DNA of 64,000 bases. Origin: a virus. A program made the translations under genes and the position numbers. The stretch covers positions 64,001 to 128,000 of the IMG/VR virus record IMGVR_UViG_3300020477_000001, one strand, 5' to 3'. The notes beneath the pieces are model-generated. The model saw nothing but the letters and a program-made list of their open reading frames with translations, made no database searches and was not told the origin of the DNA. Numbering within the stretch: the first letter of the stretch is position 1; every line of letters begins with the position of its first letter. This document shows, one piece after another, positions 1,200 through 61,207 of the stretch.

Positions 1200-1551
1200 C
1201 GTTCAACCAATCTTTTATCGTTTTTGGCTTTTTTTCTTCTACTTTAAAATCTTCTCCAAATTTTTCTTTGCCGACTTCGTTTATAGTTTGCTCTCGAAGG
1301 TTAACTTTTTTAGTTAGCGTGATGTTTTTAATTACTGATTTACCTTCTTCTGTAAAGAACCAACTCAAGTCATTACAGTTTTCGTGAACAGGGAATTCTT
1401 CCCAGAACTTTTCGTCTGGTATCATTTCTAGCATTTTTTTTGCTAGAAACATATTTGTTTTAATTTGCTTAGGGCTGGCCCAAGCACTTGCTTTATCTTT
1501 GTAGAATCTCCCAATAATTTTTTGATATTTATTGGGCTTCCTTTTCTTCAT
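1192..1551 (-). CDS. hypothetical protein
   Basis: ORF overlapping both neighbours in operon; ATG at 1551 preferred. Confidence 0.6.
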   Translation of the reverse strand: MKKRKPNKYQKIIGRFYKDKASAWASPKQIKTNMFLAKKMLEMIPDEKFWEEFPVHENCNDLSWFFTEEGKSVIKNITLTKKVNLREQTINEVGKEKFGEDFKVEEKKPKTIKDWLNDA

Positions 1552-3546: not shown

Positions 3547-3547
3547 C

Positions 3548-11304: not shown

Positions 11305-12323
11305 TTTATATTCTCTAGTACGTAGTTGTACACCCTGCTAATCCCCTCCTCAATGTTGAATTTCGGCTCCCAGTTTAGCTCTTTTTTACACTTTGACATA
11401 TCTGCTATAGAGTTTTTGTGTACTTCCTGTTGTATTCTGTGGGTAGAAAGTTGATTGGTGCAGTTGAATAAAGATTCATATTTATCCCAGTAGTTTTCGG
11501 GTTTTTTGAATTTAGCTTCAATATCTTTACCAGAAACTTCTAAAAATATTTGGTACAGCTTCGGTACTGAGAACCCTGCTCCCGTTCCTATGTTGTAGAT
11601 TCCCATTTGATCGCTTTTAGCGGCTATCTCTGTGACGAGGGATATTAGGTCTTCTACAAAAATATAGTCTCTCTCTGCTGTCGATTGATTGTATAACGTA
11701 GGGGCTTCGTTCTTTGCTAGGCATTTTGCTACGTATCCAGTGAATGGCGGTTGCTTTCTTAGGAAATCTTGGTGGGCTCCGTAGACATTAAAGAATCTGA
11801 GTACAGCTATGCTCATTCCGTAGTTATTAATGTAAGATAGGCATAGATTTTCCCCCGCCCTTTTAGTCATTGCGTAGGTAAGGTCTGGATTTACTGGGTC
11901 GTGTTCGGCGTACCCTGTACTGTACCCTCTTTTCTGTGTTGACTTGGTGTTTTCGTAAACCGCTGAAGTTGACGCGAAGAGGATTCGCGGTACGTTCTTT
12001 TTTCTGCAAGCTTCTAGCACGCTCGCTAGCCCACCTACATTTACACTATAGGCTCTCTGGGGGTCTGTTTGGCAGTCGGGTAGGGGTGCGATTCCAGCTA
12101 GGTGAATAACTAGCTCGCAGTCAGAAAGGGTATTTTCTAGCTCTGGCTGATTTCTTACGTCGCATTCGTGTAGCGTTCCGAAAGTTTTACCATCTATCGT
12201 GAGGTTGTCTTTTTGCCCGTAGCTAAAGTCGTCCAAAAGATGAACGTCGTGACCTAAGTTGTGGTAGTAATGGCCTAGTTGGGAGCCTATAAACCCTGCA
12301 CCTCCTGTGATAACTACCTTCAT
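11301..12323 (-). CDS. NAD-dependent sugar epimerase/dehydratase
   Basis: TGGAGFIG, ASTSAVY, YAMTK, RFFNVYG. Confidence 0.9.
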   Translation of the reverse strand: MKVVITGGAGFIGSQLGHYYHNLGHDVHLLDDFSYGQKDNLTIDGKTFGTLHECDVRNQPELENTLSDCELVIHLAGIAPLPDCQTDPQRAYSVNVGGLASVLEACRKKNVPRILFASTSAVYENTKSTQKRGYSTGYAEHDPVNPDLTYAMTKRAGENLCLSYINNYGMSIAVLRFFNVYGAHQDFLRKQPPFTGYVAKCLAKNEAPTLYNQSTAERDYIFVEDLISLVTEIAAKSDQMGIYNIGTGAGFSVPKLYQIFLEVSGKDIEAKFKKPENYWDKYESLFNCTNQLSTHRIQQEVHKNSIADMSKCKKELNWEPKFNIEEGISRVYNYVLENIK

Positions 12324-13111
12324 AACTTGCTAACTATATCAGAGAGAACGCCTCTTAGGTAGTTAATTTTTTTAAGTTTTCTGGTGTACGGAAGAATTCT
12401 GGCGAAGTTTAAAAATTGAAATAAAAGGTAGTATTTCTTATAGCTTTTGATACTTAAAAAACTGTCATGTAGTCTGACATCCAAGTAGTCTAGGCTTATA
12501 TTTATTTTATTTTTATCGAAGCTTTTTTGGTATAGGTCTAGTGACCACTTATAGCGAGTGTCCTGTCTTAATTTGGCTACATCTATTAGTGGCGTTTCAA
12601 TGAATCCATCTAAGAAGTCAATTAGTATTAGCTTGTTTTTTTGGAATATTATATTACTTAGAGTTAGGTCTCCATGGCATGTGCCTATTGGAATCTCTAG
12701 TTTGTCCGGTAGGAGGTCTATGAACTTTAGTAGGCAGAGTATTTTTTTCTTGTTGTATATTTGTAGTATTTTATTCTTGATTACTTTAGAGTCGATCTCT
12801 TGAGTCTCGGAAAAAGATATGCTCTCTTGCACATAAGAGAATATATCCTCTGAAAATTTGTCTATTTCTTTTTTACCCGCTTCGGAGAGGAACGAGACGA
12901 AGTCCTTACCTGCTGCGTACTCCATGGAAAAAGAGTTTTCGGTGCTGTCTAGCACTTTGGGTGTGCTTAGGAATTTAAGGCCGCTTTTGAATTTGCTTTG
13001 CTTGAGCCTTTGCTTCTTGAGTCTGTCGTTGTACTGGAAACTTGGCGAGGTTTTAATTACCTTGCCATTTTTAAGTTCTACTTCGCATCCAGAAAAACCC
13101 TTGAGGTTCAT
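12320..13111 (-). CDS. APH/choline-kinase-like phosphotransferase
   Basis: CHGDLTLSNI Brenner motif, LIDF, DVAKLRQD. Confidence 0.75.
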   Translation of the reverse strand: MNLKGFSGCEVELKNGKVIKTSPSFQYNDRLKKQRLKQSKFKSGLKFLSTPKVLDSTENSFSMEYAAGKDFVSFLSEAGKKEIDKFSEDIFSYVQESISFSETQEIDSKVIKNKILQIYNKKKILCLLKFIDLLPDKLEIPIGTCHGDLTLSNIIFQKNKLILIDFLDGFIETPLIDVAKLRQDTRYKWSLDLYQKSFDKNKINISLDYLDVRLHDSFLSIKSYKKYYLLFQFLNFARILPYTRKLKKINYLRGVLSDIVSKL

Positions 13112-13833
13112 TTTACTCCTTTAAACCTAGGGTAGTCCTTCATGTTTTTGTCCTTGTGTATGAGTAGTTTTGGGAAAACCATTTCCCAGTTCTCTGGGTA
13201 TGCGAACCCGCTGTGGAAAACCGTTACCCTGTCTTTAAAGTCTATGAATCCTTTGTTTAGGTGAGATTCGTCGTGCCACCTCGCTACAACGTTAACCGAC
13301 AGGTCGTCGTCAATTCTTTGCTTCATTAAATTAATGAATTCTAATATGTCTGGGTTCTTGCCACCCCAGAAGCAGCCTTGCTTGTAAGCTGTGTTTTCAT
13401 TCGTTGTGCCAGCGGGCACGCAAGCCAGAGACTCTTCATTTGTTTCGAAATCTGCTAAACCGTATATGGCTTGACCGGGGTGCTGGACTCCAAATAGGCT
13501 ATGATACATGGAGAGCCAGTCTTCTGATATTTCATCGACGGCCTCCATGTCTGAGTCAATGAAAATTATATCTGAGTACTCTTTAAGTTTTTCTTCCTGT
13601 TTTAGTATGTAGTGAAACCTTTTAAGTGTTACGTATGGCCATTCTTCGTGTTCTATTTCAGTGATGATTAAGTTGTCTACCTTTAGTGAGTCGTGCTCTG
13701 GCTGATCTGTGAACACAAAAAAATCTTTGTGAGTTTTGGGTAGAAAAAATTTATTAATAGAACTGTAATAAGATTCAAAAAAATCTATATACTTCTTAGT
13801 TCCGATGAAGATTATGGCTATACGAGGTTCCAT
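13108..13833 (-). CDS. GT6 family glycosyltransferase (alpha-1,3-Gal/GalNAc transferase-like)
   Basis: IGTKKY, FVFTD, WP.VTL.RF, FIDSD, QGCFWGG, WHDESHLN. Confidence 0.85.
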   Translation of the reverse strand: MEPRIAIIFIGTKKYIDFFESYYSSINKFFLPKTHKDFFVFTDQPEHDSLKVDNLIITEIEHEEWPYVTLKRFHYILKQEEKLKEYSDIIFIDSDMEAVDEISEDWLSMYHSLFGVQHPGQAIYGLADFETNEESLACVPAGTTNENTAYKQGCFWGGKNPDILEFINLMKQRIDDDLSVNVVARWHDESHLNKGFIDFKDRVTVFHSGFAYPENWEMVFPKLLIHKDKNMKDYPRFKGVK

Positions 13834-14657
13834 GTTGTCGGTATTAGGTCTTTTATGTAGTTATACCCGTTGTCTAGGTTGTATATTTTGGGGGTATGTT
13901 CGTCTGTAAACCAGTTCTTGGGGGCGCATACCTTCTTGTTCGTGTTCTTATTTAGGTATGCTGCCCACCAGCTAAAGCTAGAGTTGCATATGATTGAGTC
14001 TTTGAATTTACTCATAAGCGCAAACTCAATTAAATCCTCTCTGAGGAAGTGCTGTGACTCATTTTCGGAGTCTTGAGTGGTAGGGTTTTTTGAGTGTTCT
14101 CTTTCAGATATGAATTCGCAGTTGTATGAAGAGAAGGTTTCTTTGCACCAGTCTATATCATCAGAGAATACGGCAAATTTACTGCACCCGATGAAGTTGA
14201 GACAGTTATTGTAATAGTCTACACTTTGTGATTCATATACCGCCGAAAGGGTTTCGTAGTCACCTCTTCTTACATGGACGAACGCTGAGCATTCTCTTAG
14301 TGTGTCTGAGTACTTTTCGGAAATATAGTTTTCTATTTCGCTAGAGAATTCGAAAATTTTTCTAATTTCTTTTTCTGAGTTTTCAAAATACTTATAAGAT
14401 TGAAAGTATCCATTAAGACCTATTGGCCTAACTGGCTCTGGTAACTTTATCTCTTGGTAGTTGCAGTATTTTTCTTGTAGAATGTCTCTTACTAGTATTT
14501 TCGCTGTTGGGAGGCGATTTTTAAAAAATTGCTGATAATCCCATTCGGGAAAAATAGCTAACTGGTTGCTGGTTTTAGCAATACCAATTGTGGAGGATAT
14601 TTGGAATAATTGATTACCAAGTCTTCCTAATTTTCCTAGGTTTGGAAAGGATATCAT
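13818..14657 (-). CDS. GT11 alpha-1,2-fucosyltransferase
   Basis: GRLGNQLFQ, GYFQSYKYF, HVRRGDY, FSDDIDWCK, NSSFSWWAAYL. Confidence 0.9.
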   Translation of the reverse strand: MISFPNLGKLGRLGNQLFQISSTIGIAKTSNQLAIFPEWDYQQFFKNRLPTAKILVRDILQEKYCNYQEIKLPEPVRPIGLNGYFQSYKYFENSEKEIRKIFEFSSEIENYISEKYSDTLRECSAFVHVRRGDYETLSAVYESQSVDYYNNCLNFIGCSKFAVFSDDIDWCKETFSSYNCEFISEREHSKNPTTQDSENESQHFLREDLIEFALMSKFKDSIICNSSFSWWAAYLNKNTNKKVCAPKNWFTDEHTPKIYNLDNGYNYIKDLIPTTWNLV

Positions 14658-14658
14658 T

Positions 14659-15612
14659 TTAGATGTTCTCCTCTATCCATTTAAATAGCTCGCACTTCGG
14701 TTCCCAGCCAAGCATTTTTTTTGCCTTGGAGTTGTCGCACAACGTTTTCCTTGGTTCAAATCTTGGGTCTATGTGTTTAATTTCTCCTCCAATTTTTTTT
14801 GCAATGTCGAGAATCTTGTAGTCTTTTCCGTTACCTATATTGAATACGTGGAAGCCTTCGTCTGTTTCTGGTCGCGTTGCGGCTAGTATATTCGCGTCAC
14901 AGATATCTCTGACATTAACGAAGTCTCTGGACTGTAGGCCATCCCCAGTAATAGTTAAAGGTTTGCCTTCATTCTTCAATCTCTTAAAAATACCCATAAT
15001 TGGGACATATGGACCTTCAGTCGGCTGTCTGTATCCGTAGGCATTAAAGTACCTCAAAGCTACGCTGTTTAATTTAAATAAATTAAAAAATAATTGCAAG
15101 TATACCTCCCCGATGAGCTTGTGTGCAGCGTATGGGCTAAGCGGGTCACTCGGCATGTCTTCTGGTGTGGGGAGCGTTTTTGCGTCACCGAGTACTGCGC
15201 TTGTCGAGCTAAAGATAACTTTTTGTACTTGCGCTTTTTTTGCAGCCAAGAAAACATTTAGTGAGCCGTTGACATTGACATCATGGAATGTGACGGGGTC
15301 TTGTATTGACTGCTCAACCCTTGGTCTGGCAGCTAAGTGGAAAACGTATTTTGAGTTGCGGAAAACCTTGTATAGCTCTTGAACGCCGTCTCTTATGTCC
15401 ATTTTGTGGATAGTGACCATATCTGGATCGCTCTCTGACTCTTTTATATTTGCACCTAGCACTACTTGATTCGGGAAGTGCAAGGGCAAGCCTTCGTAAG
15501 TTGAGTAATCGTCAACCACATGTACGTCGTACCCTAGGTCAAAGAGTTTTTTCGTGAGGTTACTTCCTATGAATCCGCAGCCTCCAGTAACTATAACCTT
15601 GTCTTTAGCCAT
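14659..15612 (-). CDS. NAD-dependent epimerase (UDP-hexose/HexNAc 4-epimerase-like)
   Basis: TGGCGFIG, SPYAAHK, RYFNAYG, GDGLQSRDFV. Confidence 0.9.
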   Translation of the reverse strand: MAKDKVIVTGGCGFIGSNLTKKLFDLGYDVHVVDDYSTYEGLPLHFPNQVVLGANIKESESDPDMVTIHKMDIRDGVQELYKVFRNSKYVFHLAARPRVEQSIQDPVTFHDVNVNGSLNVFLAAKKAQVQKVIFSSTSAVLGDAKTLPTPEDMPSDPLSPYAAHKLIGEVYLQLFFNLFKLNSVALRYFNAYGYRQPTEGPYVPIMGIFKRLKNEGKPLTITGDGLQSRDFVNVRDICDANILAATRPETDEGFHVFNIGNGKDYKILDIAKKIGGEIKHIDPRFEPRKTLCDNSKAKKMLGWEPKCELFKWIEENI

Positions 15613-16564
15613 ATTTCTTTACCATTTTGTTGTATAGGGGGCATCCACTTTCATACCAGTCTACAGAGTCTCTAAGTATGCCTCCGTATTTGGAAAGTAG
15701 ATTTTGGTATGCTATTGTTATGAAAAAGTTTCCGAAATGGACTCTCAGCCCATATCTTAGTACGTCTGCACATTCCGCTTCCATTCCCTTGTGTAGGAAA
15801 GATTCTGCAAATTTAGCTATATCTTCTGGTGTGTTTTCCCAGTTTAGCTGGGTTACCCAGTTTTGACTTCTGTTTTCTCTTCTGTATCTAACCACCCTGC
15901 CGACAGATGTGTATTTGGCGTCATCGTGAAAGGATACCATTTTGTGATTGTGTTTGATTTTGAATCCAGATTCCCTGCACCTTAAAGCGAAGTCAGTATC
16001 TTCGTTGTGCTTACCCTTCCTGTAATCTTCCATGTTTGACATGTTGTAGAATCCGTAAGTCTCAGAATCCCACTGTAACCTTTCGAATACATGCCTTTTC
16101 ATGACCCAAGCCATACCTCCAGACATGTAGATATAATCTGAATCCTCTTCTGGCTCCAGCATTACGTGACCCCTTTCGGGGTCTAAATAGCAGCAGTGAT
16201 CCCAGAATCTAGTGCCATCTGGTAGCTTTACTCGCGATGTTAGTATGTCGAAGTCGTTTCCGTATTTAGTGAACTCAGAATACCAATCTTCAGACAAAAA
16301 CATGTCATCGTCTAAAACCAGAATATTATCAAATTTGGCTGCTGAGCACGCTAGGTTTCTCATTTCTGCCAGATTTCCAGAATCAGCAGCTTTTTTAGCG
16401 TTAACGAATTTATACTCTCCTTTTTGCTTCCAGATTCCAGAGATTATGATTTCAAAGTTAGGAATATTTTGGGAAATTATGGAGTTTATTACCCTGTTTG
16501 TTTGTACGGGTTTTTTTCCATTCGTTATGATTATGCAAGATAAATCCATAAATGTATAGCTCAA
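15605..16564 (-). CDS. GT2 family glycosyltransferase
   Basis: RNLAC..AKFD.ILVLDDD, EDTDFALR. Confidence 0.75.
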   Translation of the reverse strand: MSYTFMDLSCIIITNGKKPVQTNRVINSIISQNIPNFEIIISGIWKQKGEYKFVNAKKAADSGNLAEMRNLACSAAKFDNILVLDDDMFLSEDWYSEFTKYGNDFDILTSRVKLPDGTRFWDHCCYLDPERGHVMLEPEEDSDYIYMSGGMAWVMKRHVFERLQWDSETYGFYNMSNMEDYRKGKHNEDTDFALRCRESGFKIKHNHKMVSFHDDAKYTSVGRVVRYRRENRSQNWVTQLNWENTPEDIAKFAESFLHKGMEAECADVLRYGLRVHFGNFFITIAYQNLLSKYGGILRDSVDWYESGCPLYNKMVKKYG

Positions 16565-19771: not shown

Positions 19772-19808
19772 TCGTGTCGCATCCGTGTTGATTCTGTGTT
19801 TTAGTTCC

Positions 19809-22722: not shown

Positions 22723-23802
22723 TTATTTTATCCTAATATATACATCTTCATAATCAAGTAAATCATCCAGCCTGTCTTTGGCTGATTTATAATTAAAGAA
22801 GCAGTATTCTTTCATGTACCAGTAGAGGAATTTGTCGCTGAGCTCCTTGTCGAACCAAGATTCCGTGTCTATGGCTCTATGTAGGTCGCAGATTTTCCTT
22901 AAGTCGTAAGTTATCCAGTGGTATTCTGGCTGACAAAAGGATATAATTGGCTTAGAGTGCATCATCGCTTCAAATCCCGCTCCAGAGTTTCCTACTATTA
23001 CACATTTACTATTGGGTAGAAAGTCATGTATTGATCGAAAGCCAGTGTGAACTTCAATGCTTGGGCTTATTTTTTCAAGTTCGTATTTTATTTTATTATC
23101 TAACTGCTCATCTTCACTACAGAATTCACCTTTTTCTTTGCCATTCATGTATGGGTGAAGTTTTACAATTATTTTGTCTTTAGAGATTTTAGAAAGCTTT
23201 TCGCATATACCTCTTAGTTTGTAATAATAGGTGAATTCAAAATCCTGTTCGGATACCACCGTATCCCCAAAGCACTGGCCTACTATTAAGAAATAATCAG
23301 TATCTCGTATTGAGCCTTTCTTCTCTAAGGTATTTCTGCAAAACTTTGAGTCGTTTTTCGTCACCCACTCGTAAACGTCTTTGTGAAAGAACTTGTATAC
23401 GTCTTCGTAACTCACGTCCTCAAAGTCTGGCCTGTGGTATGTGATTGAAGAGTATGAGCCGTATCCAAGCTCATCCAGAGTCGCTTGATTTAGGTCCGGT
23501 ACTGTGGGTTTTAAAAATAAATTTAAATTAGAATTTATTTTAAAATTAGATACTTCATCTACTGTGGAGTGATTGTATATGCAAACGTCGAACTGAATAC
23601 TCTTTGCTTCTTCTGTTGAGATGCTTCGTATATGTCGCGGAGACAGTGACTCGAATTTATTGCAGTCTATGCTTAGGTCGTTTAGCTTATATATCTCATA
23701 CCCTTTGTCTGCTAAGGATTTGCATAGCCATTCGTACCTACATGCCCAGTCGATTAAGATGACATCAATCTTGTGACTGTGTAAGAGAGCCTTTGGTTTC
23801 AT
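22723..23802 (-). CDS. KpsS/KpsC-like capsular polysaccharide glycosyltransferase
   Basis: GQCFGD, IVKLHP, NSGAGFEAMMHSKP. Confidence 0.6.
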   Translation of the reverse strand: MKPKALLHSHKIDVILIDWACRYEWLCKSLADKGYEIYKLNDLSIDCNKFESLSPRHIRSISTEEAKSIQFDVCIYNHSTVDEVSNFKINSNLNLFLKPTVPDLNQATLDELGYGSYSSITYHRPDFEDVSYEDVYKFFHKDVYEWVTKNDSKFCRNTLEKKGSIRDTDYFLIVGQCFGDTVVSEQDFEFTYYYKLRGICEKLSKISKDKIIVKLHPYMNGKEKGEFCSEDEQLDNKIKYELEKISPSIEVHTGFRSIHDFLPNSKCVIVGNSGAGFEAMMHSKPIISFCQPEYHWITYDLRKICDLHRAIDTESWFDKELSDKFLYWYMKEYCFFNYKSAKDRLDDLLDYEDVYIRIK

Positions 23803-23820
23803 TTCGTCGGCCTCTTTTCA

Positions 23821-24897
23821 TTAAAGGTGAGAAAGTATTTGGTCTAGGGTCTTGGAGTAGGTGAATTCTTCTTTTAACTTTACCCCTTCTTCGTTAATTG
23901 GGTTGCTTTTATACCTCTTAACCGCTTCTTCGCAAGCAGAAATAAATTCGTCTTCGTTGAAATCGAATATATTGCCTTGATTGAAGGGGGAGTCTTTTTT
24001 GAAGAATACGCCGTCTTCTGCTGGTATTTTGCCTGTAGGATTTACTAGTACTGAGTTGCTTTCATTTGCCCACATCTTGTATGAGTGAGCGTTCAGTATG
24101 ACCGCGTGTTTACCTAAGCAGACTGACTGAAACTCTGGTAAGCCCCAGCCTTCACCGCCAGACATGCCAACTACAATGTTTCCGCAGTTTAGGTAGTCAT
24201 TGTACATCGTATTAAGGGGCATAAAGCCGAGCATGTTGACGTTAAAGTATTCTTTTCCGCCTAAGCTCCTCTTGATTAATTCTGAATTTTTCGCTGGATC
24301 AAGGAACGTATTGAATACAGCGCAGTTTAGGTAGTAATTTTTATTGTTACCAAACTTCTTGACCCAAGAACTAATTACTTTTTCGTGGTGCTTGCGTTTC
24401 TCGAACTTGCCTACTAGGTTGAATACTATCTTTTTATCGACGAAGTAATCTCTGTTTGTGTTGTGGAAATTTACATCATCGAACCCAAGTTTGACTACGC
24501 TTGATTCAACTCCAGATTTTGCGAAGGTATTTTTTGAGTAGTCGGATGTGAATAGTAGCCTATGATTATTCTTAGCTATGTTTACTTCTGTCTCCGTAGG
24601 TTTATCTAGCTCATGGAATGTAATTAAGATTTGCTTTTCGCTAAAAGATTCTAGTGAGCCGTTTAGATGCCATAGCTTAATTACCGGAGTGGACCTGTCA
24701 TGTTCTTTTGAGGACTTATTTATACATGATTGAATCCATTCGAAGAATTCTTTGTCTTGCGGTTGGGACGAGAGGTCCACGTTGCCAACAGGAAACAGAC
24801 AAGGATGCATATCCCTTTTGTACATCTCCCTCAAAAGGGATACACAAACTTGCCCGAACGAGACGGAATTAATTGGGAAGTTTAGCGAGAAGTCCAT
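23821..24897 (-). CDS. GT4-like glycosyltransferase
   Basis: VGKFEKRK, SGGEGWGLPEFQS; start taken at MDFSL. Confidence 0.75.
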   Translation of the reverse strand: MDFSLNFPINSVSFGQVCVSLLREMYKRDMHPCLFPVGNVDLSSQPQDKEFFEWIQSCINKSSKEHDRSTPVIKLWHLNGSLESFSEKQILITFHELDKPTETEVNIAKNNHRLLFTSDYSKNTFAKSGVESSVVKLGFDDVNFHNTNRDYFVDKKIVFNLVGKFEKRKHHEKVISSWVKKFGNNKNYYLNCAVFNTFLDPAKNSELIKRSLGGKEYFNVNMLGFMPLNTMYNDYLNCGNIVVGMSGGEGWGLPEFQSVCLGKHAVILNAHSYKMWANESNSVLVNPTGKIPAEDGVFFKKDSPFNQGNIFDFNEDEFISACEEAVKRYKSNPINEEGVKLKEEFTYSKTLDQILSHL

Positions 24898-24904
24898 AGG
24901 TGAC

Positions 24905-25198
24905 CTATAGTAGTTCCTCGCATTCCTCCGTCTCCTCAACAGATTCTTTCACTACTTGAACCTTCTGTTGTTGGTTGTTGTTTCTCTGGGTGGATTCGTA
25001 GATTCTAAGAAAGGGTTGGTTACTGCCTTCAGTGTGGTACTTATTGTTGAAGACGGTAAGTTTTACCTCACCTGCTTCAACCCACTTTTTTGCCAGTTCC
25101 TTAGTTACCTTGATGTTTCCACCATAGTACTCTTCCTTGCTGTCGTTTCTCATTTCTCTTTTCCAGAGAGCCCCTAGTTCATTTTCTTTATTTGCCAT
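24905..25198 (-). CDS. hypothetical protein (ELGALW motif, acidic tail; possible ssDNA-binding)
   Basis: ELGALWK..., QP.LRIY, acidic C-terminus. Confidence 0.45.
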   Translation of the reverse strand: MANKENELGALWKREMRNDSKEEYYGGNIKVTKELAKKWVEAGEVKLTVFNNKYHTEGSNQPFLRIYESTQRNNNQQQKVQVVKESVEETEECEELL

Positions 25199-43922: not shown

Positions 43923-43951
43923 TTGACCGAAATTAAAAAACCATATAGCAT
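43923..43951 (+). promoter_or_regulatory. sigma70-type phage promoter for scaffold RNA and effector
   Basis: TTGACC-gaaaTTAAAAAAccata(17)-TAGCAT; predicted +1 near 43958. Confidence 0.7.
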
Positions 43952-43957
43952 AATCCC

Positions 43958-44120
43958 CAGTCGCTAACAGACTGCTACGGTGGGTTGCACCGGAAGGGGA
44001 GGGAAACCTCCAAATGCCGAATAGGTATGGTTCGCTTGCGAAGCAGATTCGGAAAGTTCCTAGGGGTCAACGGGGGGAGGATCATCCCGATCCTCCTCCC
44101 GCCCCCAAACCCTACAACAC
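43958..44120 (+). ncRNA. putative tracr/omega-like scaffold RNA of the TnpB/Cas12f-like effector
   Basis: Hairpins CAGTC/GACTG, CGGTG-GGTTG-CACCG, GGAGG-GAAA-CCTCC, CCGAAT/ATTCGG enclosing TTCG-CTTG-CGAA, long GC stem 44071-44101; ends in repeat-like CTACAACAC. Confidence 0.7.
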
Positions 44121-44129
44121 ATCTTTAAA

Positions 44130-45638
44130 ATGAAAAAAAAATCTAAACTTCAAAAGGTTGAACAAGAAACTATTCCTGTTAAATACCGAATCTACCCAAA
44201 CCTTAAGCAACGCAAATACCTTGACAGATGCTTTCTTTCCAGCCGAATCGTATGGAACTGGCTGCTAGGAGTACAGAAAGATTATGACCGTGGTCTTACT
44301 GAATGGGTAAAAGAAAAGTATGCCAAAGAGCTACAGAAATTCTGCAAGAAAGAAGGCTTCGAATTAAGCAGTCCATTTGAGCACGAAAAAATAAAAGAAT
44401 TAAAAAAAGGAGAAGCGAAAAAATTTCACACGGAAGTCATTCGCCTCAAGAAGGAGGAAGTTTTCCCCTCTGTCTTAGGGATAGAACTCCTTAAAGCCAT
44501 TATTCCTAATGCAGAAGAAGACGAAATCAAGAAGATGATAGTCAACAAAAAGAATCCTTCCGCTTCTAACAAGACTATCAACATCATGGACTTAAAAAGG
44601 CAAGTAAAAAACCTTCGAGAAGATAAACCAATCTTAAACCAAGTCGCATCCCAAGGAATCCATCACGTACCGCTTAACCTAGCTAAAGCTTGGAAGGCGT
44701 GCTACGACAAGAACCGCCCAGATTCCGGTGAGCCTAAATTCAAGAACAAATTCGCGAAGCAGTCATTCACTTTTGACACAGCAAAGCTTCAAGGAAATAA
44801 GTTATTCCTCCCGCCTAAAAGCAAAAACATTTTCATTAAAACAAAAGTCCATCGAGAGATGGAGGGTGAGCAAAAAACAATTACTGTTACTAAAAGCAAA
44901 ACAGGAGAATACTACGCCTCAGTTAACTTTAGGCAAGATGTATTCTTCCCGAAGCCCAAAAGTTTTAGTAAATCGAGCACGGTTGGCATTGACCTAGGAA
45001 TTAAAGATGACTACATCATTATGTCTAACGACATGGGGTCAATCAAAAACCCAAAATTTTTCAAGAAGCATGAGCGCAAAATCGCAATGCTAAATCGAAA
45101 ATTATCGCGCTCCCAGCCGAATAGCAATTCACGCAACAAAGTTCTACACGAGCTTAACCGCGAGTACGAGAAGCTCTCTAAAGCAAGGGAAGATTTTCAG
45201 CATAAGGTAACACACCAGATCGTAACTAACCCAAACATCAAGGCGGTGGCTGTCGAGGACTTGAATGTGAAGGGCATGACAGCTAAGAACAAACCAAAGG
45301 AGGGCGAAAATGGCCACTACTTACCAAACAATCAGTGCGCCAAACGAGGACAAAACAAAGCCACTCTGGACGCTGGGTTTGGAAGAGTTAGGCAGATGCT
45401 TGACTACAAATGTAAGCGCAATGGCAAAACGTTTGGAAAAGTTGACAGGTTCTTTGCATCCTCCAAAACATGCAACAACTGCGGTCATATCAATAAAGAG
45501 CTCAAAGTTTCCGACCAGTACTGGACCTGCGAAAAATGTGGCGAGCATCACGAGAGGAACTTTAATGCGGCAAATAACGTGCGAGATGAATTTATACGCG
45601 CAAGCAAGCAGAAAAAGAAAACCAAGAACTCGAAATAA
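44130..45638 (+). CDS. tnpB: TnpB/Cas12f-like RNA-guided protein, RuvC-III Asp replaced by Asn
   Basis: YRIYP...SRIVWNW N-terminus, GIDLG (D288), VEDL (E376), SSKTC..C, C..C zinc ribbon, HERNFNAANN (N477); no tnpA nearby. Confidence 0.85.
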   Translation: MKKKSKLQKVEQETIPVKYRIYPNLKQRKYLDRCFLSSRIVWNWLLGVQKDYDRGLTEWVKEKYAKELQKFCKKEGFELSSPFEHEKIKELKKGEAKKFHTEVIRLKKEEVFPSVLGIELLKAIIPNAEEDEIKKMIVNKKNPSASNKTINIMDLKRQVKNLREDKPILNQVASQGIHHVPLNLAKAWKACYDKNRPDSGEPKFKNKFAKQSFTFDTAKLQGNKLFLPPKSKNIFIKTKVHREMEGEQKTITVTKSKTGEYYASVNFRQDVFFPKPKSFSKSSTVGIDLGIKDDYIIMSNDMGSIKNPKFFKKHERKIAMLNRKLSRSQPNSNSRNKVLHELNREYEKLSKAREDFQHKVTHQIVTNPNIKAVAVEDLNVKGMTAKNKPKEGENGHYLPNNQCAKRGQNKATLDAGFGRVRQMLDYKCKRNGKTFGKVDRFFASSKTCNNCGHINKELKVSDQYWTCEKCGEHHERNFNAANNVRDEFIRASKQKKKTKNSK

Positions 45639-46742: not shown

Positions 46743-47177
46743 ATGAGGAAAAACAAGATTTCATTAGTAAGCGGCGGATTTGATCCAATTCACGTTGGAC
46801 ACATAGAACTCTTTAACAGGGCTAGAGAAATCTCTGACGGGCTATTCGTGATCTTGAATAGTGATAGGTTCCTCACAGAAAAGAAGGGCAAGCCCTTCAT
46901 GCAGCAACCAGAAAGAAAAGTCATTATTGAAAACTTACAGATGGTTGACTTGGTTATACCTTCAATAGACGAAGACCAAACGGTTTGTGCTACCCTGCGA
47001 AAACTAGCTAGCCTCAAGGACGCAGTTGACTCTGAATTATATTTCTGCAATGGTGGAGACAGGACGGACGGCGAGAACACGCCAGAACACAAAGTCTGCG
47101 AAGAAGTCGGAATACACAACGTTTATGGATTAGGTGAAAAAATCCAAAGCAGTAGTTGGCTTACGAAAGGGAACTGA
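46743..47177 (+). CDS. cytidyltransferase-like (HIGH) protein
   Basis: SGGFDPIHVGH, NGGDR, KIQSSSWL. Confidence 0.8.
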   Translation: MRKNKISLVSGGFDPIHVGHIELFNRAREISDGLFVILNSDRFLTEKKGKPFMQQPERKVIIENLQMVDLVIPSIDEDQTVCATLRKLASLKDAVDSELYFCNGGDRTDGENTPEHKVCEEVGIHNVYGLGEKIQSSSWLTKGN

Positions 47178-47199
47178 AACACATAAAATCACCGTCGCG

Positions 47200-50340: not shown

Positions 50341-50508
50341 TGATAACGCCCCCGAAGATCATAGGTTTTATATGGGTAGCATTCTTAACACTGTTTTACT
50401 TCTTCGCCTCAATAGCTGTTTTTATTGTTACTTCAATCGCTAATATTTTTAAAAAAGAATAAATAAAAAACCTTGACTAAAGTTAAAAAACTCTCTATTA
50501 TATTACCC

Positions 50509-51390
50509 ATGAAGAGAATTGATACTTATTTCGCAAAAGAGTACGAGGCAGACACACCCACTGCCTCTATGCGTAAGTTGCGCCCAGTGGCTGAAGCAGC
50601 TAGTGCTGCTGGTTACGCAAACATCTTGAAGACATCCTCCAGCGAAGGCGTTAGCGACAAGCTAAAAAAAATTCACAATGCAGATTACGTGGAAGCCTTC
50701 TCTAACGGTACTTATCCGCTCAGCGAAAGCAATGGATGGGGCTGGAGCAAAGAGATTAGGGACGGCGTTTTCAGAATTAACACAGGGCAGCTTGACGCTG
50801 CTAAAGCTGCGTTAAGCAACGGCATTGCAGCAAATGTAGCGCAGGGGTTTCACCATGCTGGAATCGAAAGAGGCTGCGGTTATTGTACCTTCAATGGGTT
50901 AGCACTAGTCGCTAATGAATACAAGACCAAGAAAGTATTCGTTTTAGACTGCGATGAGCATGGAGGCAATGGTACGGCTGAGTTTACCAACATACTGGAC
51001 AACTTATCGCAGGTAACCATCAACGGCTCTAATTTCGGAACCGAAGAGAACCCCCGCAGCCGATGCATTACTCTTCCTCGAATCACTAACCGATTTGAGC
51101 TTTACGAAGATGCACTGGAAGAAGGCTTCTCTATAATGGATAGGTTCGAGCCCGACTTGGTTATCTACCAAGCTGGTGCTGATCCTCACATTGACGATCC
51201 CTTGGGCTCTCTGGGTATGACAACCGAACAAATGTACAACAGAGACAAGAAAGTATTTACGAAGCTCAAAGCTTCAAATATACCGACAATGTTCGTACTG
51301 GCGGGGGGCTATCAAACCCCGATTGAGGAAAAACTTGTACCGCTGCACTTGAACACCTTCAAGGCTGCTCACGAAGTATACAACAATTAA
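50509..51390 (+). CDS. histone deacetylase family (Zn-dependent deacetylase)
   Basis: GFHHA, GYCTFN, LDCDEHGGNGT, QAGADP..DDPLG, LAGGY. Confidence 0.88.
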   Translation: MKRIDTYFAKEYEADTPTASMRKLRPVAEAASAAGYANILKTSSSEGVSDKLKKIHNADYVEAFSNGTYPLSESNGWGWSKEIRDGVFRINTGQLDAAKAALSNGIAANVAQGFHHAGIERGCGYCTFNGLALVANEYKTKKVFVLDCDEHGGNGTAEFTNILDNLSQVTINGSNFGTEENPRSRCITLPRITNRFELYEDALEEGFSIMDRFEPDLVIYQAGADPHIDDPLGSLGMTTEQMYNRDKKVFTKLKASNIPTMFVLAGGYQTPIEEKLVPLHLNTFKAAHEVYNN

Positions 51391-51435
51391 AGGAACAACA
51401 ACACAGCACCAAAGATACTATCTCCGTAGCATACT

Positions 51436-53039: not shown

Positions 53040-53993
53040 ATGAGTAGCTACCTAGAAGAAAAGTCGTCGGAAGATTTATATTTTAATGAAATTTCAAGAT
53101 ACGATTTAATCTCCTCGGATCGAGAAAAAGAGTTAGCAAAAAAAATAAAAAAAGGCGGAAGAACTGGCAAAAAAGCCCTTGAAGAATTAGTTAATGCTAA
53201 TTTAAGATTAGTCGTAAAGATAGCTGGAGAGTTCAAAGGCTTTGGGTTGGATTCTGGCGATTTAATCAACGAGGGAAACCTCGGATTGATGAGGGCCGCT
53301 GAAAAGTATGATGGCCGCGAAGGCGTTAAGTTTTCAACATATTCCGCGTATTGGATAAGGCAAAGTATCTACAGAGCCCTCTCGAATAAGAGCAGAACAA
53401 TTAGGCTTCCCGTTCATGTTTGCGCTGCTAATTCTAAAATAATTAAATTTATTTCAAAATACCAAGAATCCAACAATGGAAAAAAGCCTTCAGTTAAGCA
53501 GATAGCGAAAGCCACCAACGCAACAGAAAGATTGGTGTCGGATGTAATAAATGGTGGAGTGACCAACGTAAACTCTCTAGACAGAGAAATCGGAACTGAT
53601 GACAGCGGCTCTAAAGAGACCCTAGGGAACATAATTGAGGACCAAAACGCTGAATCCCCCGACCAAATCTGGAAAAACGTGGAAGATGTTAGTATTCTAT
53701 TAAAATTGATACAAAAATTAAATAATAGAGAAAGATACATAATTTGCAATAGATATGGAATAGGAACCAAGACCCCAAAAACTCTAGAAGAAATTGGGGA
53801 ACACTTCGGCGTTACTAGGGAAAGAATAAGGCAGGTACAAAAAGTAGCAATGATGAAGTTAAAAAACTACATGGATAAGTATTATAGATACAAGCCAGAG
53901 GTTGAGGATCATTATGTTGAAGGCCGAAGATTTGTAGCAAGGGTTAAAAGAGAAGAAAAAGCCAGAGAAAAGAAAAAAAAGGTTAAAAAATAG
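53040..53993 (+). CDS. sigma-70 family (RpoD/RpoS-like) sigma factor
   Basis: ANLRLVVKIA, DLINEGNLGL, KFSTY..YWIRQ, RTIRLPVH, TLEEIG...VTRERIRQ. Confidence 0.92.
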   Translation: MSSYLEEKSSEDLYFNEISRYDLISSDREKELAKKIKKGGRTGKKALEELVNANLRLVVKIAGEFKGFGLDSGDLINEGNLGLMRAAEKYDGREGVKFSTYSAYWIRQSIYRALSNKSRTIRLPVHVCAANSKIIKFISKYQESNNGKKPSVKQIAKATNATERLVSDVINGGVTNVNSLDREIGTDDSGSKETLGNIIEDQNAESPDQIWKNVEDVSILLKLIQKLNNRERYIICNRYGIGTKTPKTLEEIGEHFGVTRERIRQVQKVAMMKLKNYMDKYYRYKPEVEDHYVEGRRFVARVKREEKAREKKKKVKK

Positions 53994-54815: not shown

Positions 54816-55682
54816 TGCAAAAGCCAGACAACAAAATGAAGCGCTGGCTAAACTCTCAGACCAAAGATTTAAAAAAAATTAATTTTAATTCTCTGGTAAA
54901 TTCATTCAAAGACAAGTTTAAGGTCAGTATCAACGATGCTCGTATGTACGTGATGCAATGGGACCACGACAGAAACAAGCATTAAACCGCCGTATTAGAT
55001 GCTTGACATATATTAAAAAACTCCTTATCATATATCTACAGACATACCTTAAGATATATATAGGAACAAACAATGGACTTAATATTTGCGGCAATAGTGA
55101 TATACTTCTTCTGCTTTGCTTTTAAGCAGCTAGTCAAGGATTTGTAAATCGAGGGGGAGCTACAACACAACAAATTGTGAAAACAATAGCCCTGTTTTTA
55201 CGAGCTTTTTACACATTTTTTAAAACACTCACAGTGAACTACAACACTATAAGCTAGTATGGAACTAATAAACACAATAAAGCATTTCAAAAGAATAAAA
55301 TAAAATATTGAAGTGTATTAAAATGGGTTAATGTGGGGTGCATATTATATATATATCCGTCAAGCATTAAATTTAAAAACTATTCACATATTTATTAACA
55401 CTGAAACCACGTCAAGCAAAAACAACAAAAAACAATAAAAAACTTATTAATATTTTCTAAGTCAAGAAAAAACAAACAAAAACTTAAAAAATTATTATTG
55501 ACTATATAGCAAATATATGGGCTTAAAACCAAGAAAAGAAGGAGAAGCAAAAAGAATAGCAACATACATAATATTAATCATATATGGAATTGTTATACTT
55601 ATAGTTTATCTATTAAATAAATTATTTTCTTGACACAGATAAATGGAATTAAAACACAATAAAGAATAGAGGGTTTTTTTTG

Positions 55683-55792
55683 TTGACTTAACTTAAATAA
55701 ATTAGTATAATGTTTCCAAAGGGGCTTCATCACAACAAAGGTAAGATTTTTCTTGACTTAAGTTAAATAATATATTAAAATTTTCCAAAGGG
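55683..55792 (+). promoter_or_regulatory. tandem near-duplicate sigma70 promoters upstream of the repeat field
   Basis: TTGACTtaacttaaataaattagTATAATgtttccaaaggg and TTGACTtaagttaaataatatatTAAAATtttccaaaggg. Confidence 0.7.
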
Positions 55793-56101
55793 ATTTTTTT
55801 TATTTTTTTTAATTCTTATAATAGGAATTATTTTTTTCTTGACAAGTAAATAATGTTTCTTATTCTTATTATGCTTAAGGAGCTACACCACGTTATTAAC
55901 ACCAACGTACACGGAACTACACCACCCATTTGCCGACGATTGATTTTTAAGGAACTAAAGCACGGATTCGAACTCACGTCTGGAACTACGACACCCATTT
56001 ACCAAGGAGCCGCAACACGTCGAATGCAGTGGTATATTTGTGAACGCAATCGAGCCAAATAATAGGAACTAAATACACGAGGTCGGGAGTTCAGAAAAGC
56101 C

Positions 56102-56130
56102 TTGACTCATCTTAAAAAACTCTTCATAAT
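56102..56130 (+). promoter_or_regulatory. promoter of the CRISPR array
   Basis: TTGACT-catcTTAAAAAActctt(17)-CATAAT. Confidence 0.7.
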
Positions 56131-56226
56131 AGTCCCCAGATTAAGAAACTGATCTTTGACATAGGCACTGCAACACACGAGGCCAAAGACATTCAAGGGA
56201 CTACAACACAACATTATGGTATTCCT

Positions 56227-56777
56227 TAGCAATTTAAGGGACTGCAACACAGTAAGGCGATTATAACATCGCGCTCGACGGTTCGCACTGGTACTAATTT
56301 AAGGGACTGCAACACTGCAACCATGCTAACTAACGTGGTTACACAGCTTCGCACTGGTAGCAATTTAAGGGACTGCAACACTGTTACACACATCGCTGCG
56401 ATGAAGCGGCGGCTTCGCACTGGTACAGATTTTAGGGACTGCAACACCGTATCAGAACGAGATATCGTCCCGCCTTGGGCTTCGCACTGGTAGCAATTTA
56501 AGGGACTGCAACACTTAGTCGAACCGCATAACGTCGAGTGTCTGCTTCGCACTGATAGCAATTTAAGGGACTGCAACACAATGAGGCAGATAATGGAAGG
56601 GGTAGCTAGCTTCGCACTGATAGCAATTTAAGGGACTGCAACACAAAACTGCACCAACAGGAAGCGGAATCACAGTTTTGCACTGGTACTAATTTAAGGG
56701 ACTGCAACACAAGGGGTGACGTAGTGGAAGCGACCACATAAGCTTCGCACTGGTACAGATTTTAGGGACAACAACAC
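56227..56777 (+). CRISPR. CRISPR array: 8 full 36-nt repeats plus 1 partial, 8 spacers of 29-31 nt
   Basis: Consensus GCTTCGCACTGGTAGCAATTTAAGGGACTGCAACAC at 56280, 56346, 56412, 56479, 56544, 56609, 56675, 56742; unique spacers. Confidence 0.93.
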
Positions 56778-56797
56778 AGTAAAGAACCCTACGTACA

Positions 56798-57659
56798 TAT
56801 TTGTGAATGATTTTTGGACAAATAAAGGAACAACAACACTGAATCTCTAGGCGATATTTGTGAATGATTTTAAGGCAAATAAAGGGAACTACAACACTCT
56901 GTTAAAGTCCGTCCAACACGAGGCGGCGAGAATTGATGCCGATCAAAATACTTAATTATTGATTGACTAATTTTTTTGTCGCTCATTTGTGAACGTCAAA
57001 GAGGCAAATAATATAGGGGAATTAAATTAGATATTTTAGATTAATAGGGACTAATTAAACACGATGCTCAATCCCAATATTGTTAATTTATGAATGATTT
57101 TTTGCCAAATAAGGGTTATTTAACATAAGGGAATTTCGTATACAAGAAAAATGTTGCCCCGGAGAAAACACCCCCTTATAAGAAATATATTAAAGGAACT
57201 AAAACACAACAAAAGTGATGAAGAATTTAATTTTAATTATTATTATTTTAATTATTACTGGTTGTTATACAGCCAAGGAAAGAGTAATGCCTCTTGGTCC
57301 CCATGATGATAGCTATGGTAAGAATTGGGTAAGTAATTAAGGAACTGTAACACCAAATCCAGCATGGCGTTTAGATATTTTGGGAACTAAAACACGGGTA
57401 TAGCTCATTTGAAATAGGAACTAGAACACATGTGGTGCGCCATTATATTTGTGAACGCGATTTTTGCAAATAAAGGAACTACAACACCAGCGGTTTCAGA
57501 AGCTATCTGTGAACGCGATTTTTGCAAATAAAGGAACTACAACACCCGTCATGGAATTATAACACTAACTCCTCAGATGGAACTACAACACGTTGAGATA
57601 CTGCTTTCGCGGGAGCTATCTGTGAACACAATTTTTGCAAATATAGGGAACTACAACAC
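56798..57659 (+). repeat. second repeat class: hairpin TATTTGTGAA..TTTTGCAAATA followed by GGAACTACAACAC
   Basis: Copies near 56035, 56798, 56856, 57446, 57504, 57617; degenerate copies near 56984 and 57085. Confidence 0.75.
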
Positions 57660-57890
57660 GACGGGAACTCACGACGGAGAGTTAATCAAGGAACAACAAC
57701 ACGAAAACTTTTTCTGTATTCTTGATCTTGTAATGGAACTACAACACTCAAGGGCGGCTCATTTTAATTTAAAATAAAAAAGGGAACTACGACACTTGCT
57801 ATTATTAATTGTATCTTTAATTAGTGTAATTATTATTGTCTATAAGTTTTTATTGACTGTAATTAAATTGCTCTATATAAAAGGATACAC

Positions 57891-58127
57891 ATGAAAAAAA
57901 AGAAACTATCCCCGCAAGCCCAAATATACGAGAAGGCTTGGAACGACGTAGTGTCCGAAATGAGTGACCATAAAAGAAATATTATTATTAATAATTTTAC
58001 TGTTGTCAGTGGTCATCATGTATATGAGAATAAATATGATCAAAGGGTAGCAGATGAAGCAGCTAAGGAAGCCCGTATACGAGGTGACCAACAAATAGAA
58101 GCACTGTTTCCAACTGGCAAGTATTAA
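57891..58127 (+). CDS. hypothetical protein
   Basis: ORF with promoter and AAGGA SD; mini-repeat follows the stop. Confidence 0.55.
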   Translation: MKKKKLSPQAQIYEKAWNDVVSEMSDHKRNIIINNFTVVSGHHVYENKYDQRVADEAAKEARIRGDQQIEALFPTGKY

Positions 58128-58278
58128 AGGTACTACAACACGAGCGGGCACTACAGTGGTAGGAACAACAACACAGTCCCCTGCTATAATCTATGGAACT
58201 AAAGCACGAGTGCATATAGTAGAAAAAAATAAAAAAAAATAATTGACTTAAATTAAAAAAAACTTCATACTGGTCGCC

Positions 58279-58521: not shown

Positions 58522-58594
58522 TGGAATAACAACACGAACGAAAAGACTTCATAAAAGTCTTGACCTAACTTAAAAAACTATATAATATATCCCT

Positions 58595-60405: not shown

Positions 60406-60633
60406 ATGAAGAAGTCTCACTGGAAAGAAGGTCTTGAAATACCCAAGCCACCAAAGGGAATCACTCACGCCCAAATAAAGTGTGGCAAGAAGAAGTCTAC
60501 CGTAACTATAAACGACTTCGACACTTTCCGAGGGGTAGAGGGAATGGTGCGCTGGGGTAAGCAAAAGAAGAACAGTAAAACAATTGAATTAATAGGAGAA
60601 GAATTCTTTTGGGACGGATTTAAAGTAGAATAG
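60406..60633 (+). CDS. hypothetical protein
   Basis: ORF; its stop overlaps a mini-repeat. Confidence 0.5.
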   Translation: MKKSHWKEGLEIPKPPKGITHAQIKCGKKKSTVTINDFDTFRGVEGMVRWGKQKKNSKTIELIGEEFFWDGFKVE

Positions 60634-61207
60634 GAACTACAACACAACATAATATTCGCGACTCGCAAGGGAACTACAACACGTTCAAGGACTTGGTATA
60701 AAAATTTCCTCCCAAACCGTGGGCTATCCCAACCCCACACCGGAGTCGATGGAATAGAGGCGGAAGAGAGCTCCGCACTAGCGATGGGGATATCGCTACG
60801 TTTAACACCATCGGCTCCTTGACTTCTTTCAAATAACCTCGTATACTAATACCAGCAAACCAAATAATACAATTTTATCTTTCCTGTATTATTGAAAGTT
60901 CAAACTTCTTAATGTCTCTATGCAATTTAGGGACAACTTCTGCCCTTCATCGGCAAACAAAAATGAATCAAATAACACCAAATAAAAGCGAACCATATAC
61001 GAACAAATAATAGACAAATAAAATAGATATAAGAATATAAGAATATAAAATTTGGCGGGTGACCCTATAATAATAGAACAACAATTGTTAATAACTTTTT
61101 AATAATGTTAATAATTTTTTCTTGACTTAAACATACAGAAAAACGGAATAACAATTATTTTTTTCTTGACAAGCAAAATCGTGTAGAAAATTTTTTATAT
61201 TTTTTTG

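Follow-up and report, generated by a model that had tools for sequence, protein, structure and literature searches.

Organization of the locus

The 64,000-nucleotide (nt) stretch analysed here (the window; positions 64,001 to 128,000 of IMG/VR record IMGVR_UViG_3300020477_000001) is part of a complete, terminally redundant virus genome of 158,301 bp with 39.6% G+C. Its carrier is a lytic-type marine phage, with a gene content that includes a ribonucleotide reductase, a UvsX-like recombinase, a sigma-70-family factor and a clamp loader. Our subject is a set of repeat units in this window that share a short 3' motif, the handle, together with a TnpB-derived effector gene and a structured RNA, the scaffold, encoded upstream of them (Table 1). 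The 13-mer GGRRCTRMRRCAC that describes the handle has 26 matches in the window as against 0.04 expected from shuffles, with 25 of the 26 on the plus strand. Over the whole 158-kb genome a slightly looser pattern finds 30 copies on the plus strand and one on the minus strand, and looser scoring still yields 49 versus two. The sole minus-strand copy sits between the minus-strand genes nrdA and nrdB, and every copy of the handle is therefore co-oriented with local transcription. The genome-wide scan also placed handles outside the 55156-58207 region, at 47170, 51392, 58523, 60633, 60670 and, on the minus strand, 19808. Positions 1-2 (GG) and 11-13 (CAC) of the handle are near invariant and positions 3, 5, 6 and 7 are variable; these calls were taken from motif scans, as handle logos are biased by the detection rule.

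The handle forms the 3' end of three types of unit, namely a 36-nt repeat (the last 13 nt of which fit GGRRCTRMRRCAC), a 42-nt repeat and about 25-30 bare copies. The latter are interleaved with small genes and with promoters of a single sigma70-type family, and are mostly spaced by 18-35 nt, with one spacing of 11 nt. Seven family promoters on the plus strand, i.e. the five of the left flank and two more at 58243 and 58560, point into the clusters of units; the -10 element of the one at 55839-55866 ends 12 nt upstream of the handle at 55879. The 36-nt repeats constitute a regular clustered regularly interspaced short palindromic repeat (CRISPR) array, in which eight full copies (56280-56777) are separated by unique spacers of 30, 30, 31, 29, 29, 30 and 31 nt. 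These are preceded by a 5'-truncated repeat (56226-56250), which keeps the 3' 25 nt, and a 29-nt spacer. Constant-length repeats with unique spacers of similar length are the generic signature of CRISPR arrays. The cas1 and cas2 genes that generically go with it are absent, as the corresponding profiles (PF01867 and PF09827) had no match in the complete genome and detected their targets in control genomes. The isolated 36-mer has no fold of its own (z +1.3).

Most of what a preliminary description of this DNA had proposed was borne out by these results: three grades of repeat with a common 13-nt handle, a regular array with 29-31-nt spacers, a variable middle between near-invariant GG and CAC ends, a single orientation (which, outside the region originally described, holds relative to local transcription) and several sigma70 promoters feeding the region. 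Two details did not stand. The grades were said to have only the 13 nt in common, but the stretch common to the 36-mer and 42-mer at their 3' ends is about 22 nt long. The 42-nt class, with eight copies in the window, five of which have a good handle, was said to form a hairpin, but its AT-rich inverted repeat folds marginally in the best copy (-5.2 kcal/mol, z -1.4), a sister copy is unfolded and the arms show no covariation among copies. The 42-nt class is a conserved sequence rather than a proven hairpin.

Effector and scaffold RNA

The effector gene lies about 10.6 kb upstream of the array. Its product matches the Pfam families HTH_OrfB_IS605, OrfB_IS605 and Cas12f1-like_TNB, and the ISDra2 TnpB, Cas12n and LaTranC chains of the PDB; nine full-length relatives of this clade of about 500 amino acids (aa) were found in the protein database. 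Distant relatives, with effectors about 40% identical, are present in phages L254, L255 and L256, and a further locus is found on a 73-kb IMG/VR contig (L257/L258). In the closest relatives the gene occupies the same position between those for an S24 peptidase, a cell-wall hydrolase and ThyX, and is syntenic rather than mobile. The RuvC-I Asp and the RuvC-II Glu are kept and a zinc-finger region is present. RuvC-III, however, reads ERN.NA in 10 of 10 clade members instead of the DRD.NA of ordinary TnpBs, such that the D-E-D triad intact in type V or TranC-like nucleases has Asn in place of its third Asp, and a catalytic RuvC residue is, by sequence, lost as in TldR proteins. Because this substitution extends over the whole clade, the effector complex probably binds DNA without cutting it, in the manner of TldR, nuclease-dead Cas12f (dCas12f) or Cas12m.

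Directly 5' of the effector gene and behind a family promoter lies the G+C-rich, 163-nt scaffold, which folds with a z-score of -3.6 relative to shuffles. The last 9 nt of the commonest handle, CTACAACAC, also close the 3' tail of the scaffold, which stops 9 nt short of the effector ATG. The scaffold is about 93% identical in L001, where the effector is only 68% identical, and the RNA upstream of the gene in the closest relatives shows compensatory changes. In an alignment of six scaffold lineages, 15 of the 36 predicted pairs have double compensatory changes, and several are G-U pairs in some sequences; these covarying and G-U pairs establish the scaffold as a real RNA read on the plus strand. 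An Rfam scan of the window recovered two tRNAs only. The unpaired invariant elements of the scaffold are a GGGUUG loop, a GAAAGUYCC junction and a tail ending in AACAC. This AACAC end is common to all six scaffolds compared, and in the window phage both the tail and the handles carry CTACAACAC.

Each conserved block of the handle has a complement among the invariant single-stranded elements of the scaffold, GUYCC for GGRAC and GUUG for CAACAC, and the best predicted duplex of a bare handle lands on the GUUCC junction in four of four phages. Two other pairings were rejected. One, between the 5' half of the 36-mer and the scaffold, relies on an 8-nt complement seen here and lost in L254 and L255. 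The other, between scaffold AGUUG and handle CAAC in L254 and L255, involves a segment that is the 3' strand of a covarying stem.

Related loci in other phages

L254, L255 and L256 have the same scaffold RNA 5' of the effector gene. In L254 and L255 an array with a closely related 36-nt repeat immediately follows the effector on the same strand, placing an effector of the TnpB/Cas12 RuvC fold next to an array as in type V or TranC-like systems. In L256 the gene is followed by one eroded 36-mer and several mini-units, with no array. The array of L257 lies 1.3 kb upstream of the scaffold, and in L257/L258 the array, three tRNA genes, the scaffold and the effector are all on one strand. Throughout L254-L257 the units are on the effector strand with bare handles flanking, and L254 also has 42-nt repeats. 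Every array, including the related ones of L237, L254, L255, L257 and L258, opens with a truncated repeat, of which the 3' 19-25 nt are left; the spacers of the window array are not common to the related arrays. Retention of the 3' part in the first array unit fits an anatomy in which the guide lies 3' of a repeat-derived handle, as in type V or TranC-like systems. Further relatives sought in IMG/VR with the effector, the clamp-loader protein and a 30-mer of the scaffold were not found, and loose two-handle patterns run against IMG/VR and metagenomes retrieved mostly collagen-like coding repeats, the informative hits being L237 and L209.

Positions 14-18 of the 36-mer occur as CTAAT, GCAAT or CAGAT, interleaved inside each array, and the same variants recur in the arrays of distant phages (window 56280-56777; L254 7780-8075; L255 3975-4410). 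They are an old polymorphism, not the product of simple duplication of the leader-proximal repeat. Genes for tRNAs adjoin guide units in two lineages (L257 1960-2990, minus strand; L255 1720-1965), and in L257 the first handle starts 6 nt after a tRNA 3' end, so that tRNA processing might set the 5' end of the first guide RNA. A small open reading frame (ORF) for a lipoprotein-like product, with a signal peptide and a lipobox Cys, stands among the mini-units of four phages (window 57218-57340, L254 8461-8596, L255 4707-4813, L256 3507-3638), with a handle directly after it.

Conservation of guides across repeat grades

To compare guides between phages we used the first 14 nt after every handle. 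Among cross-phage pairs of mini-units, 30 of 1829 agree at 10 or more of the 14 nt and form a mode apart from the rest, as against none of 289 array-array pairs, the maximum there being 8. At least six guide families recur. Within these families nt 1-9 and nt 11 have identities of 0.74-1.0, nt 10 has 0.57 and nt 12-16 have 0.35-0.78; from nt 17 the values are mostly at background (about 0.3). Those for the first 7-9 positions are biased upwards because these positions defined the families. In orthologous handles the middle positions are more variable than the guide seeds. Conservation of mini-unit guides spans about 11-16 nt next to the handle and array spacers are not conserved, a distinction that is new here and that had been suggested as a check on the function of the units. 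In line with the earlier proposal, the units resemble guide-RNA units of a single effector, and the bare handle a minimal form of them.

The conserved guides are also found behind repeats of different grade. For the guide starting TGAATCT, the preceding unit is a 42-nt repeat in the window (56798-56839), a bare handle in L254 and, in L255, an eroded 36-mer. In the window array, the last full 36-mer is followed by a relative of the GTTATTAA family (about 67% identity, aligned by hand), and the family itself follows bare handles in other phages. Eroded 36-mers occur in the window (58106-58141), in L255 (about 4853-4898) and in L256 (2920-2957). That a single conserved guide can be preceded by any of these three, a 42-nt repeat in one phage and an eroded 36-mer or a bare handle in others, is likewise a new observation. 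The preliminary description had held that useful guides are retained as their repeats erode to the minimum needed by the effector. Its first half is supported, in that guides are kept while the repeat changes grade and eroded 36-mers exist; as to the direction of change, a course towards erosion is plausible rather than proven. Acquisition of spacers in the regular array, the other part of that proposal, would have to proceed without Cas1, Cas2 or TnpA of the phage, none of which the complete genome encodes. A tRNA-like reading of the guide at 55964 was discarded, as its T-arm does not close.

Some families vary in a manner suggestive of coding sequence. In the two CCAYTT families, variation within nt 1-13 falls on sites 4, 7, 10, 12 and 13, a period of three; translated in antisense, these families give (I/M)-(V/I)-G-K-W, and the third-position changes are synonymous. 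The GTTATTAA family varies at 9, 12, 13 and 15, with a sense frame V-I-N-T-(N/D), although this family may instead be a tail-like handle. By hand calculation the chance probability is about 0.07 for each period-3 pattern and about 0.03 combined, and we take the pattern as a suggestive hint of coding targets. None of the guide-family peptides is encoded by the phage itself.

A separate observation concerns the spacer that follows the handle at 51392 (51405-51434). Its nt 6-24 are an exact, 19/19-nt reverse complement of positions 134317-134335 of the genome, outside the window (E 1.3e-5 for a single query). The matched segment is the 3' coding end of a plus-strand gene and precedes the -35 box of a family promoter by 21 nt; the five bases between handle and match, AGCAC, resemble a handle end. 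Either a self-directed guide or a chance duplication could explain the match.

Proposed mechanism

Taking the sequence comparisons together, we consider it likely that the three grades are forms of one guide-RNA unit serving the phage TnpB-derived effector and its scaffold. Each unit would have the layout 5'-handle-guide-3' on the plus strand and would be processed into a guide RNA. The scaffold, with its own CAACAC tail, would represent the unsplit, omegaRNA-like state, and the separate units the split state, akin to CRISPR RNA (crRNA). The GGRAC block of the handle may dock by base pairing on the unpaired GUYCC junction of the scaffold, with the CAACAC block beside the guide replacing the scaffold's own tail and perhaps touching the GGUUG loop, and the variable middle acting as a linker. 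For the handle itself, the 36-nt and 42-nt repeats would not need their 5' halves, since every array starts with a repeat of the 3' 19-25 nt only; the unstructured 36-mer and the truncated first repeats would both fit a short handle read in trans, and the lack of a fold in the 36-mer also fits a helper RNA acting in trans. The array would then supply variable guides and the scattered mini-units hard-wired ones, the first 11-16 nt of which would be kept by selection.

A more tentative extension, which we put forward as possible rather than probable, is that the protein, the scaffold and more than 30 minimal guides make up an RNA-guided DNA-binding network, with the guides aimed at conserved coding genes of hosts or rival elements and the array adding strain-specific guides without adaptation genes of the phage's own. 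If true, a lytic-type phage would possess a programmable regulator or blocker with multiple targets, and no smaller natural crRNA handle would be known for a TnpB/Cas12-type protein. The guide-unit reading itself would show that a CRISPR repeat can shrink to about 13 nt in two short blocks and still load guides, with most of the scaffold supplied in trans, which matters for designing very short guide cassettes and for the debate over how omegaRNA split into crRNA and trans-activating CRISPR RNA (tracrRNA) when type V systems arose. It would also be a natural case of fixed, selected guides coexisting with a variable array for one effector, and the occurrence of one guide in three repeat states among sister phages makes a path from array spacer to hard-wired regulator testable. 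As array finders report only the 8-repeat array, such systems are probably undercounted in phage genomes.

Several results weigh against the guide-RNA interpretation. In BLAST searches of 50,697 phage records, queried with the array, the left-flank units and the region as a whole, the best E-value was about 2, and a 20-mer from one array spacer had no match in IMG/VR. Matches of handle-anchored guides to the phage's own genome were no commoner than those of shuffled guides, and the TGAATCT guide had 13 matches in 301 Pseudomonadota genomes where about 8 are expected, i.e. no signal. The complementarity of GUYCC to GGRAC covers 5-6 nt, with duplex energies no stronger than those of shuffled controls. 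The only scaffold reading GUCCC, that of L257, accompanies eight GGGAC handles, a match that does not discriminate as array-type repeats are GGGAC in all the phages. Some spacings, such as the 11 nt at 55995-56005, do not leave room for a guide, the conserved guide starting GTTATTAAYAC holds AACAC and is perhaps itself a tail-like handle, and the RuvC-III Asn is on its own no proof of lost activity. Finally, type II-C repeats usually begin with the reverse complement of the handle, a likeness taken up below. Searches of cultured phages, of the phage itself and of the 301 sampled Pseudomonadota genomes likewise yielded no TAM-flanked (target-adjacent motif) promoter target of the kind typical of TldR, which is a weak negative. 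The single IMG/VR match of the TGAATCT guide was set aside: the 2508-aa ORF that contains it belongs to an unrelated contig and has no homologue here, and the search pattern already included part of the match.

Alternative explanations

The handle might act at the RNA level, as a processing or stability site or as a landing pad for the scaffold-effector complex that controls the mRNA carrying it, for instance by occluding the ribosome-binding site, with the post-handle sequences being untranslated regions. We hold this to be unlikely, although it accounts for several facts. All handles are co-directional with transcription, and no external target emerged from the searches made. Several stand 19-31 nt before start codons (in L254 at 8130, in L255 at about 4395 and in L256 at about 2985, each ahead of a conserved 80-aa gene; in this phage 19808 on the minus strand before nrdB, 51392, and the scaffold tail before the effector ATG). 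Yet most bare handles precede another handle and not a gene (55879-56018, 57341-57795), and the same handle closes every repeat of a regular CRISPR array. Moreover, conservation peaks in the 11-16 nt by the handle, in the manner of a seed, also in units with no gene downstream.

The likeness to type II-C repeats raises another reading, in which the units belong to or mimic a host type II-C CRISPR-Cas9 system, either as minus-strand spacers with a minimal repeat served by the host's Cas9 and tracrRNA or, on the plus strand, as about 35 decoys that resemble the anti-repeat and would titrate host crRNAs as an RNA anti-CRISPR. Solitary repeat units acting as RNA anti-CRISPRs are known (PMC10651486). 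The start in question is found in an array of L209 that lies beside Cas9 (1072 aa), Cas1 and Cas2, and in seven further 36-nt arrays (L247-L253) of diverse bacteria, and, read on the minus strand, the repeat here likewise begins with GTTGYAG..CC. The 36/30 geometry also fits type II, and a phage devoid of Cas1-Cas2 would need the adaptation machinery of a host. Nevertheless, the likeness is confined to 13 nt, and the full repeat of the window was not found in any genome array. The arrays instead accompany a TnpB-like effector and scaffold, on the effector strand, in five lineages; the scaffold tail has the same end in the plus sense, all family promoters are directed along the plus strand, and no handle is followed by Cas9 or a tracrRNA-like tail. 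Cas9 was absent among ten larger ORFs of the window and beside the related arrays read, a whole-genome Cas9 profile search not having been made. We regard the type II-C reading as distinctly improbable. The L209 locus itself (1185-8060) is a type II-C locus on an unrelated metagenome contig, with an NYN/OST-HTH protein encoded upstream.

Highly improbable is a DNA-level site, be it a promoter element of a phage or extracytoplasmic function (ECF) sigma factor, an operator or the end of a miniature IS200/IS605-type element left behind by the transposon from which the TnpB came: GGAAC does resemble an ECF -35 box, the phage encodes a sigma-70-family factor, the effector descends from an IS605 TnpB and the 42-nt class has a transposon-end-like inverted repeat near its conserved end, but no -10-like element or other clearly conserved position stands at any set distance from 54 bare handles (30 nt upstream and 36 nt downstream), so that the ECF-type promoter named by the preliminary description as its refutation is not supported, the encoded sigma factor has regions 1.2, 2, 3 and 4 and is hence not of the ECF type, no TnpA or other Y1 transposase was found in the complete genome, the units are syntenic across distant phages with no pattern of insertion polymorphism, and the motif is the 3' end both of a CRISPR repeat and of a covarying RNA. 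In these bare-handle flanks the highest information content was 0.27 bits, at -1, with a few downstream positions just above the random 99th percentile (0.17 bits).

Neighbouring genes and coordinates

The features of the guide-RNA-like system are collected in Table 1. Between the effector and the array lies the gene for the RpoD-type sigma factor (53040-53993), and the gene table of contig P0002 has a sigma factor gene at a similar position. A histone-deacetylase-family (PF00850) gene (50473-51390) stops just before the handle at 51392. Farther away, the minus strand of 1529-16564 carries fifteen consecutive genes of about 250-350 aa each; those sampled encode a GDP-mannose 4,6-dehydratase, NAD-dependent epimerases and a glycosyltransferase. 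It looks like a block of about 15 kb for sugar-nucleotide or polysaccharide synthesis, unusual for a phage, and further glycosyltransferase- and capsule-synthesis-like genes lie at 22723-24939.

Table 1. Features of the putative guide-RNA system, in window coordinates
Feature	Position	Strand	Basis or remarks
Handle, only minus-strand copy, between nrdA and nrdB	19796..19808	-	24 nt before nrdB ATG
Sigma70-type family promoter, before scaffold RNA	43923..43954	+	TTGACC-17 nt-CATAAT; conserved in L003-L006
Scaffold RNA (tracrRNA- or omegaRNA-like)	43958..44120	+	Folding z, covariation
502-aa TnpB/Cas12f-like effector	44130..45638	+	Pfam, PDB matches
Bare handle overlapping stop codon of cytidylyltransferase-like gene	47170..47182	+	Orthologous copy at L004 3312
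Bare handle after deacetylase-like gene	51392..51404	+	Motif scan
Left flank	55156..56209	+	About 10 bare handles and one degenerate 42-nt repeat (56035-56079)
Left-flank bare handles	55156, 55235, 55645, 55879, 55913, 55951, 55982, 56006, 56164, 56197	+	
Left-flank promoters	55003, 55683, 55753, 55839, 56102	+	
Left-flank conserved guides	after 55879, 55913, 55982		Conserved in L254, L255, L256
CRISPR array	56226..56777	+	Truncated first repeat and eight full 36-nt repeats
42-nt class	56798..57659	+	Good: 56798, 56855, 57446, 57504, 57617; degenerate: 56985, 57085; bare handles interleaved; same class at L254 10469-10720
Right flank	57195..58207	+	Bare handles and small genes (57218-57340, 57891-58127)
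Right-flank bare handles	57195, 57341, 57383, 57417, 57553, 57579, 57690, 57735, 57783, 58129, 58162, 58195	+	
Eroded 36-mer overlapping ORF end	58106..58141	+	Right flank
Bare handle after 80-aa ORF	58523..58535	+	Just 5' of next family promoter
Two bare handles, 24 nt apart	60633..60682	+	3' of small ORF

Relationship to known systems

In the literature compared, we did not find the combination of a marine lytic-type phage, a 5' scaffold with a built-in tail, a real array and dozens of 13-nt-handle units whose guides are conserved between phages. In its mode of action the system would resemble TranC or compact type V systems with a helper RNA, and in its damaged nuclease it resembles TldR or dead Cas12f. 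It is not filed under any of these, as it lacks an intact RuvC triad, cas1-cas2 and a known target promoter. A further likeness is to Cas12c and Cas12d, whose scoutRNA reportedly contacts the crRNA repeat by a few base pairs (Harrington et al., Mol Cell 2020). These are large nuclease-bearing effectors, and we know of no scattered minimal units for them.

TranC comprises transposon-CRISPR intermediate systems (cited in bioRxiv 10.64898/2026.03.27.714800; PDB 9jfo, 9jfq, 9j09). Together with Cas12f and Cas12n, which are compact type V effectors with a tracrRNA, they resemble the present system in having a TnpB-sized effector and no adaptation genes; short arrays of 32-38-nt repeats, an omegaRNA-derived helper RNA and guides 3' of the repeat are further points in common, and some members are phage-borne, as here. 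Differences are that the present clade has Asn in RuvC-III throughout, the scaffold is 5' of the gene with a built-in tail, and about 35 units with a 13-nt handle are scattered over 40 kb with guides conserved across phages.

TldRs are domesticated TnpBs with a damaged RuvC, sometimes phage-borne, with fixed guides of short effective length and seed and a proposed DNA binding without cleavage, all of which recall the present system (bioRxiv 10.1101/2023.11.30.569447; PMC13622181). They have lost part of the C-terminal RuvC/zinc-finger region and use an adjacently encoded single guide RNA (same sources). In contrast, the zinc-finger region is present here, the handle is split, there is a real array with dozens of guides, and no target promoter is known. 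Nuclease-dead Cas12f working with sigma-E (PMC13472631) is likewise a dead compact type V effector with 14-16-nt guides. Its locus has discontinuous arrays and repeat-like guide RNAs, and its fixed guides have been proposed to come from array spacers (PMC13472631). The sigma factor gene between effector and array adds to this likeness, and by analogy with the published partnership a functional link to sigma may be worth considering. However, the sigma factor here is of the RpoD type rather than ECF and does not adjoin the effector, the effector falls in the TnpB clade and not with Cas12f, and there is no evidence of activation.

crRNA-like RNAs (crlRNAs; bioRxiv 10.1101/2024.12.27.630466) and RNA anti-CRISPRs (Racr; PMC10651486) share with the mini-units an isolated degenerate repeat and a short guide outside arrays, in partnership with a CRISPR effector. 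They are found with cellular class 1, Cas9 or Cas12a systems, or act as inhibitors (same sources). Unlike them, the units described here outnumber the repeats of the array, are carried by a lytic-type phage and keep only 13 nt of the repeat.

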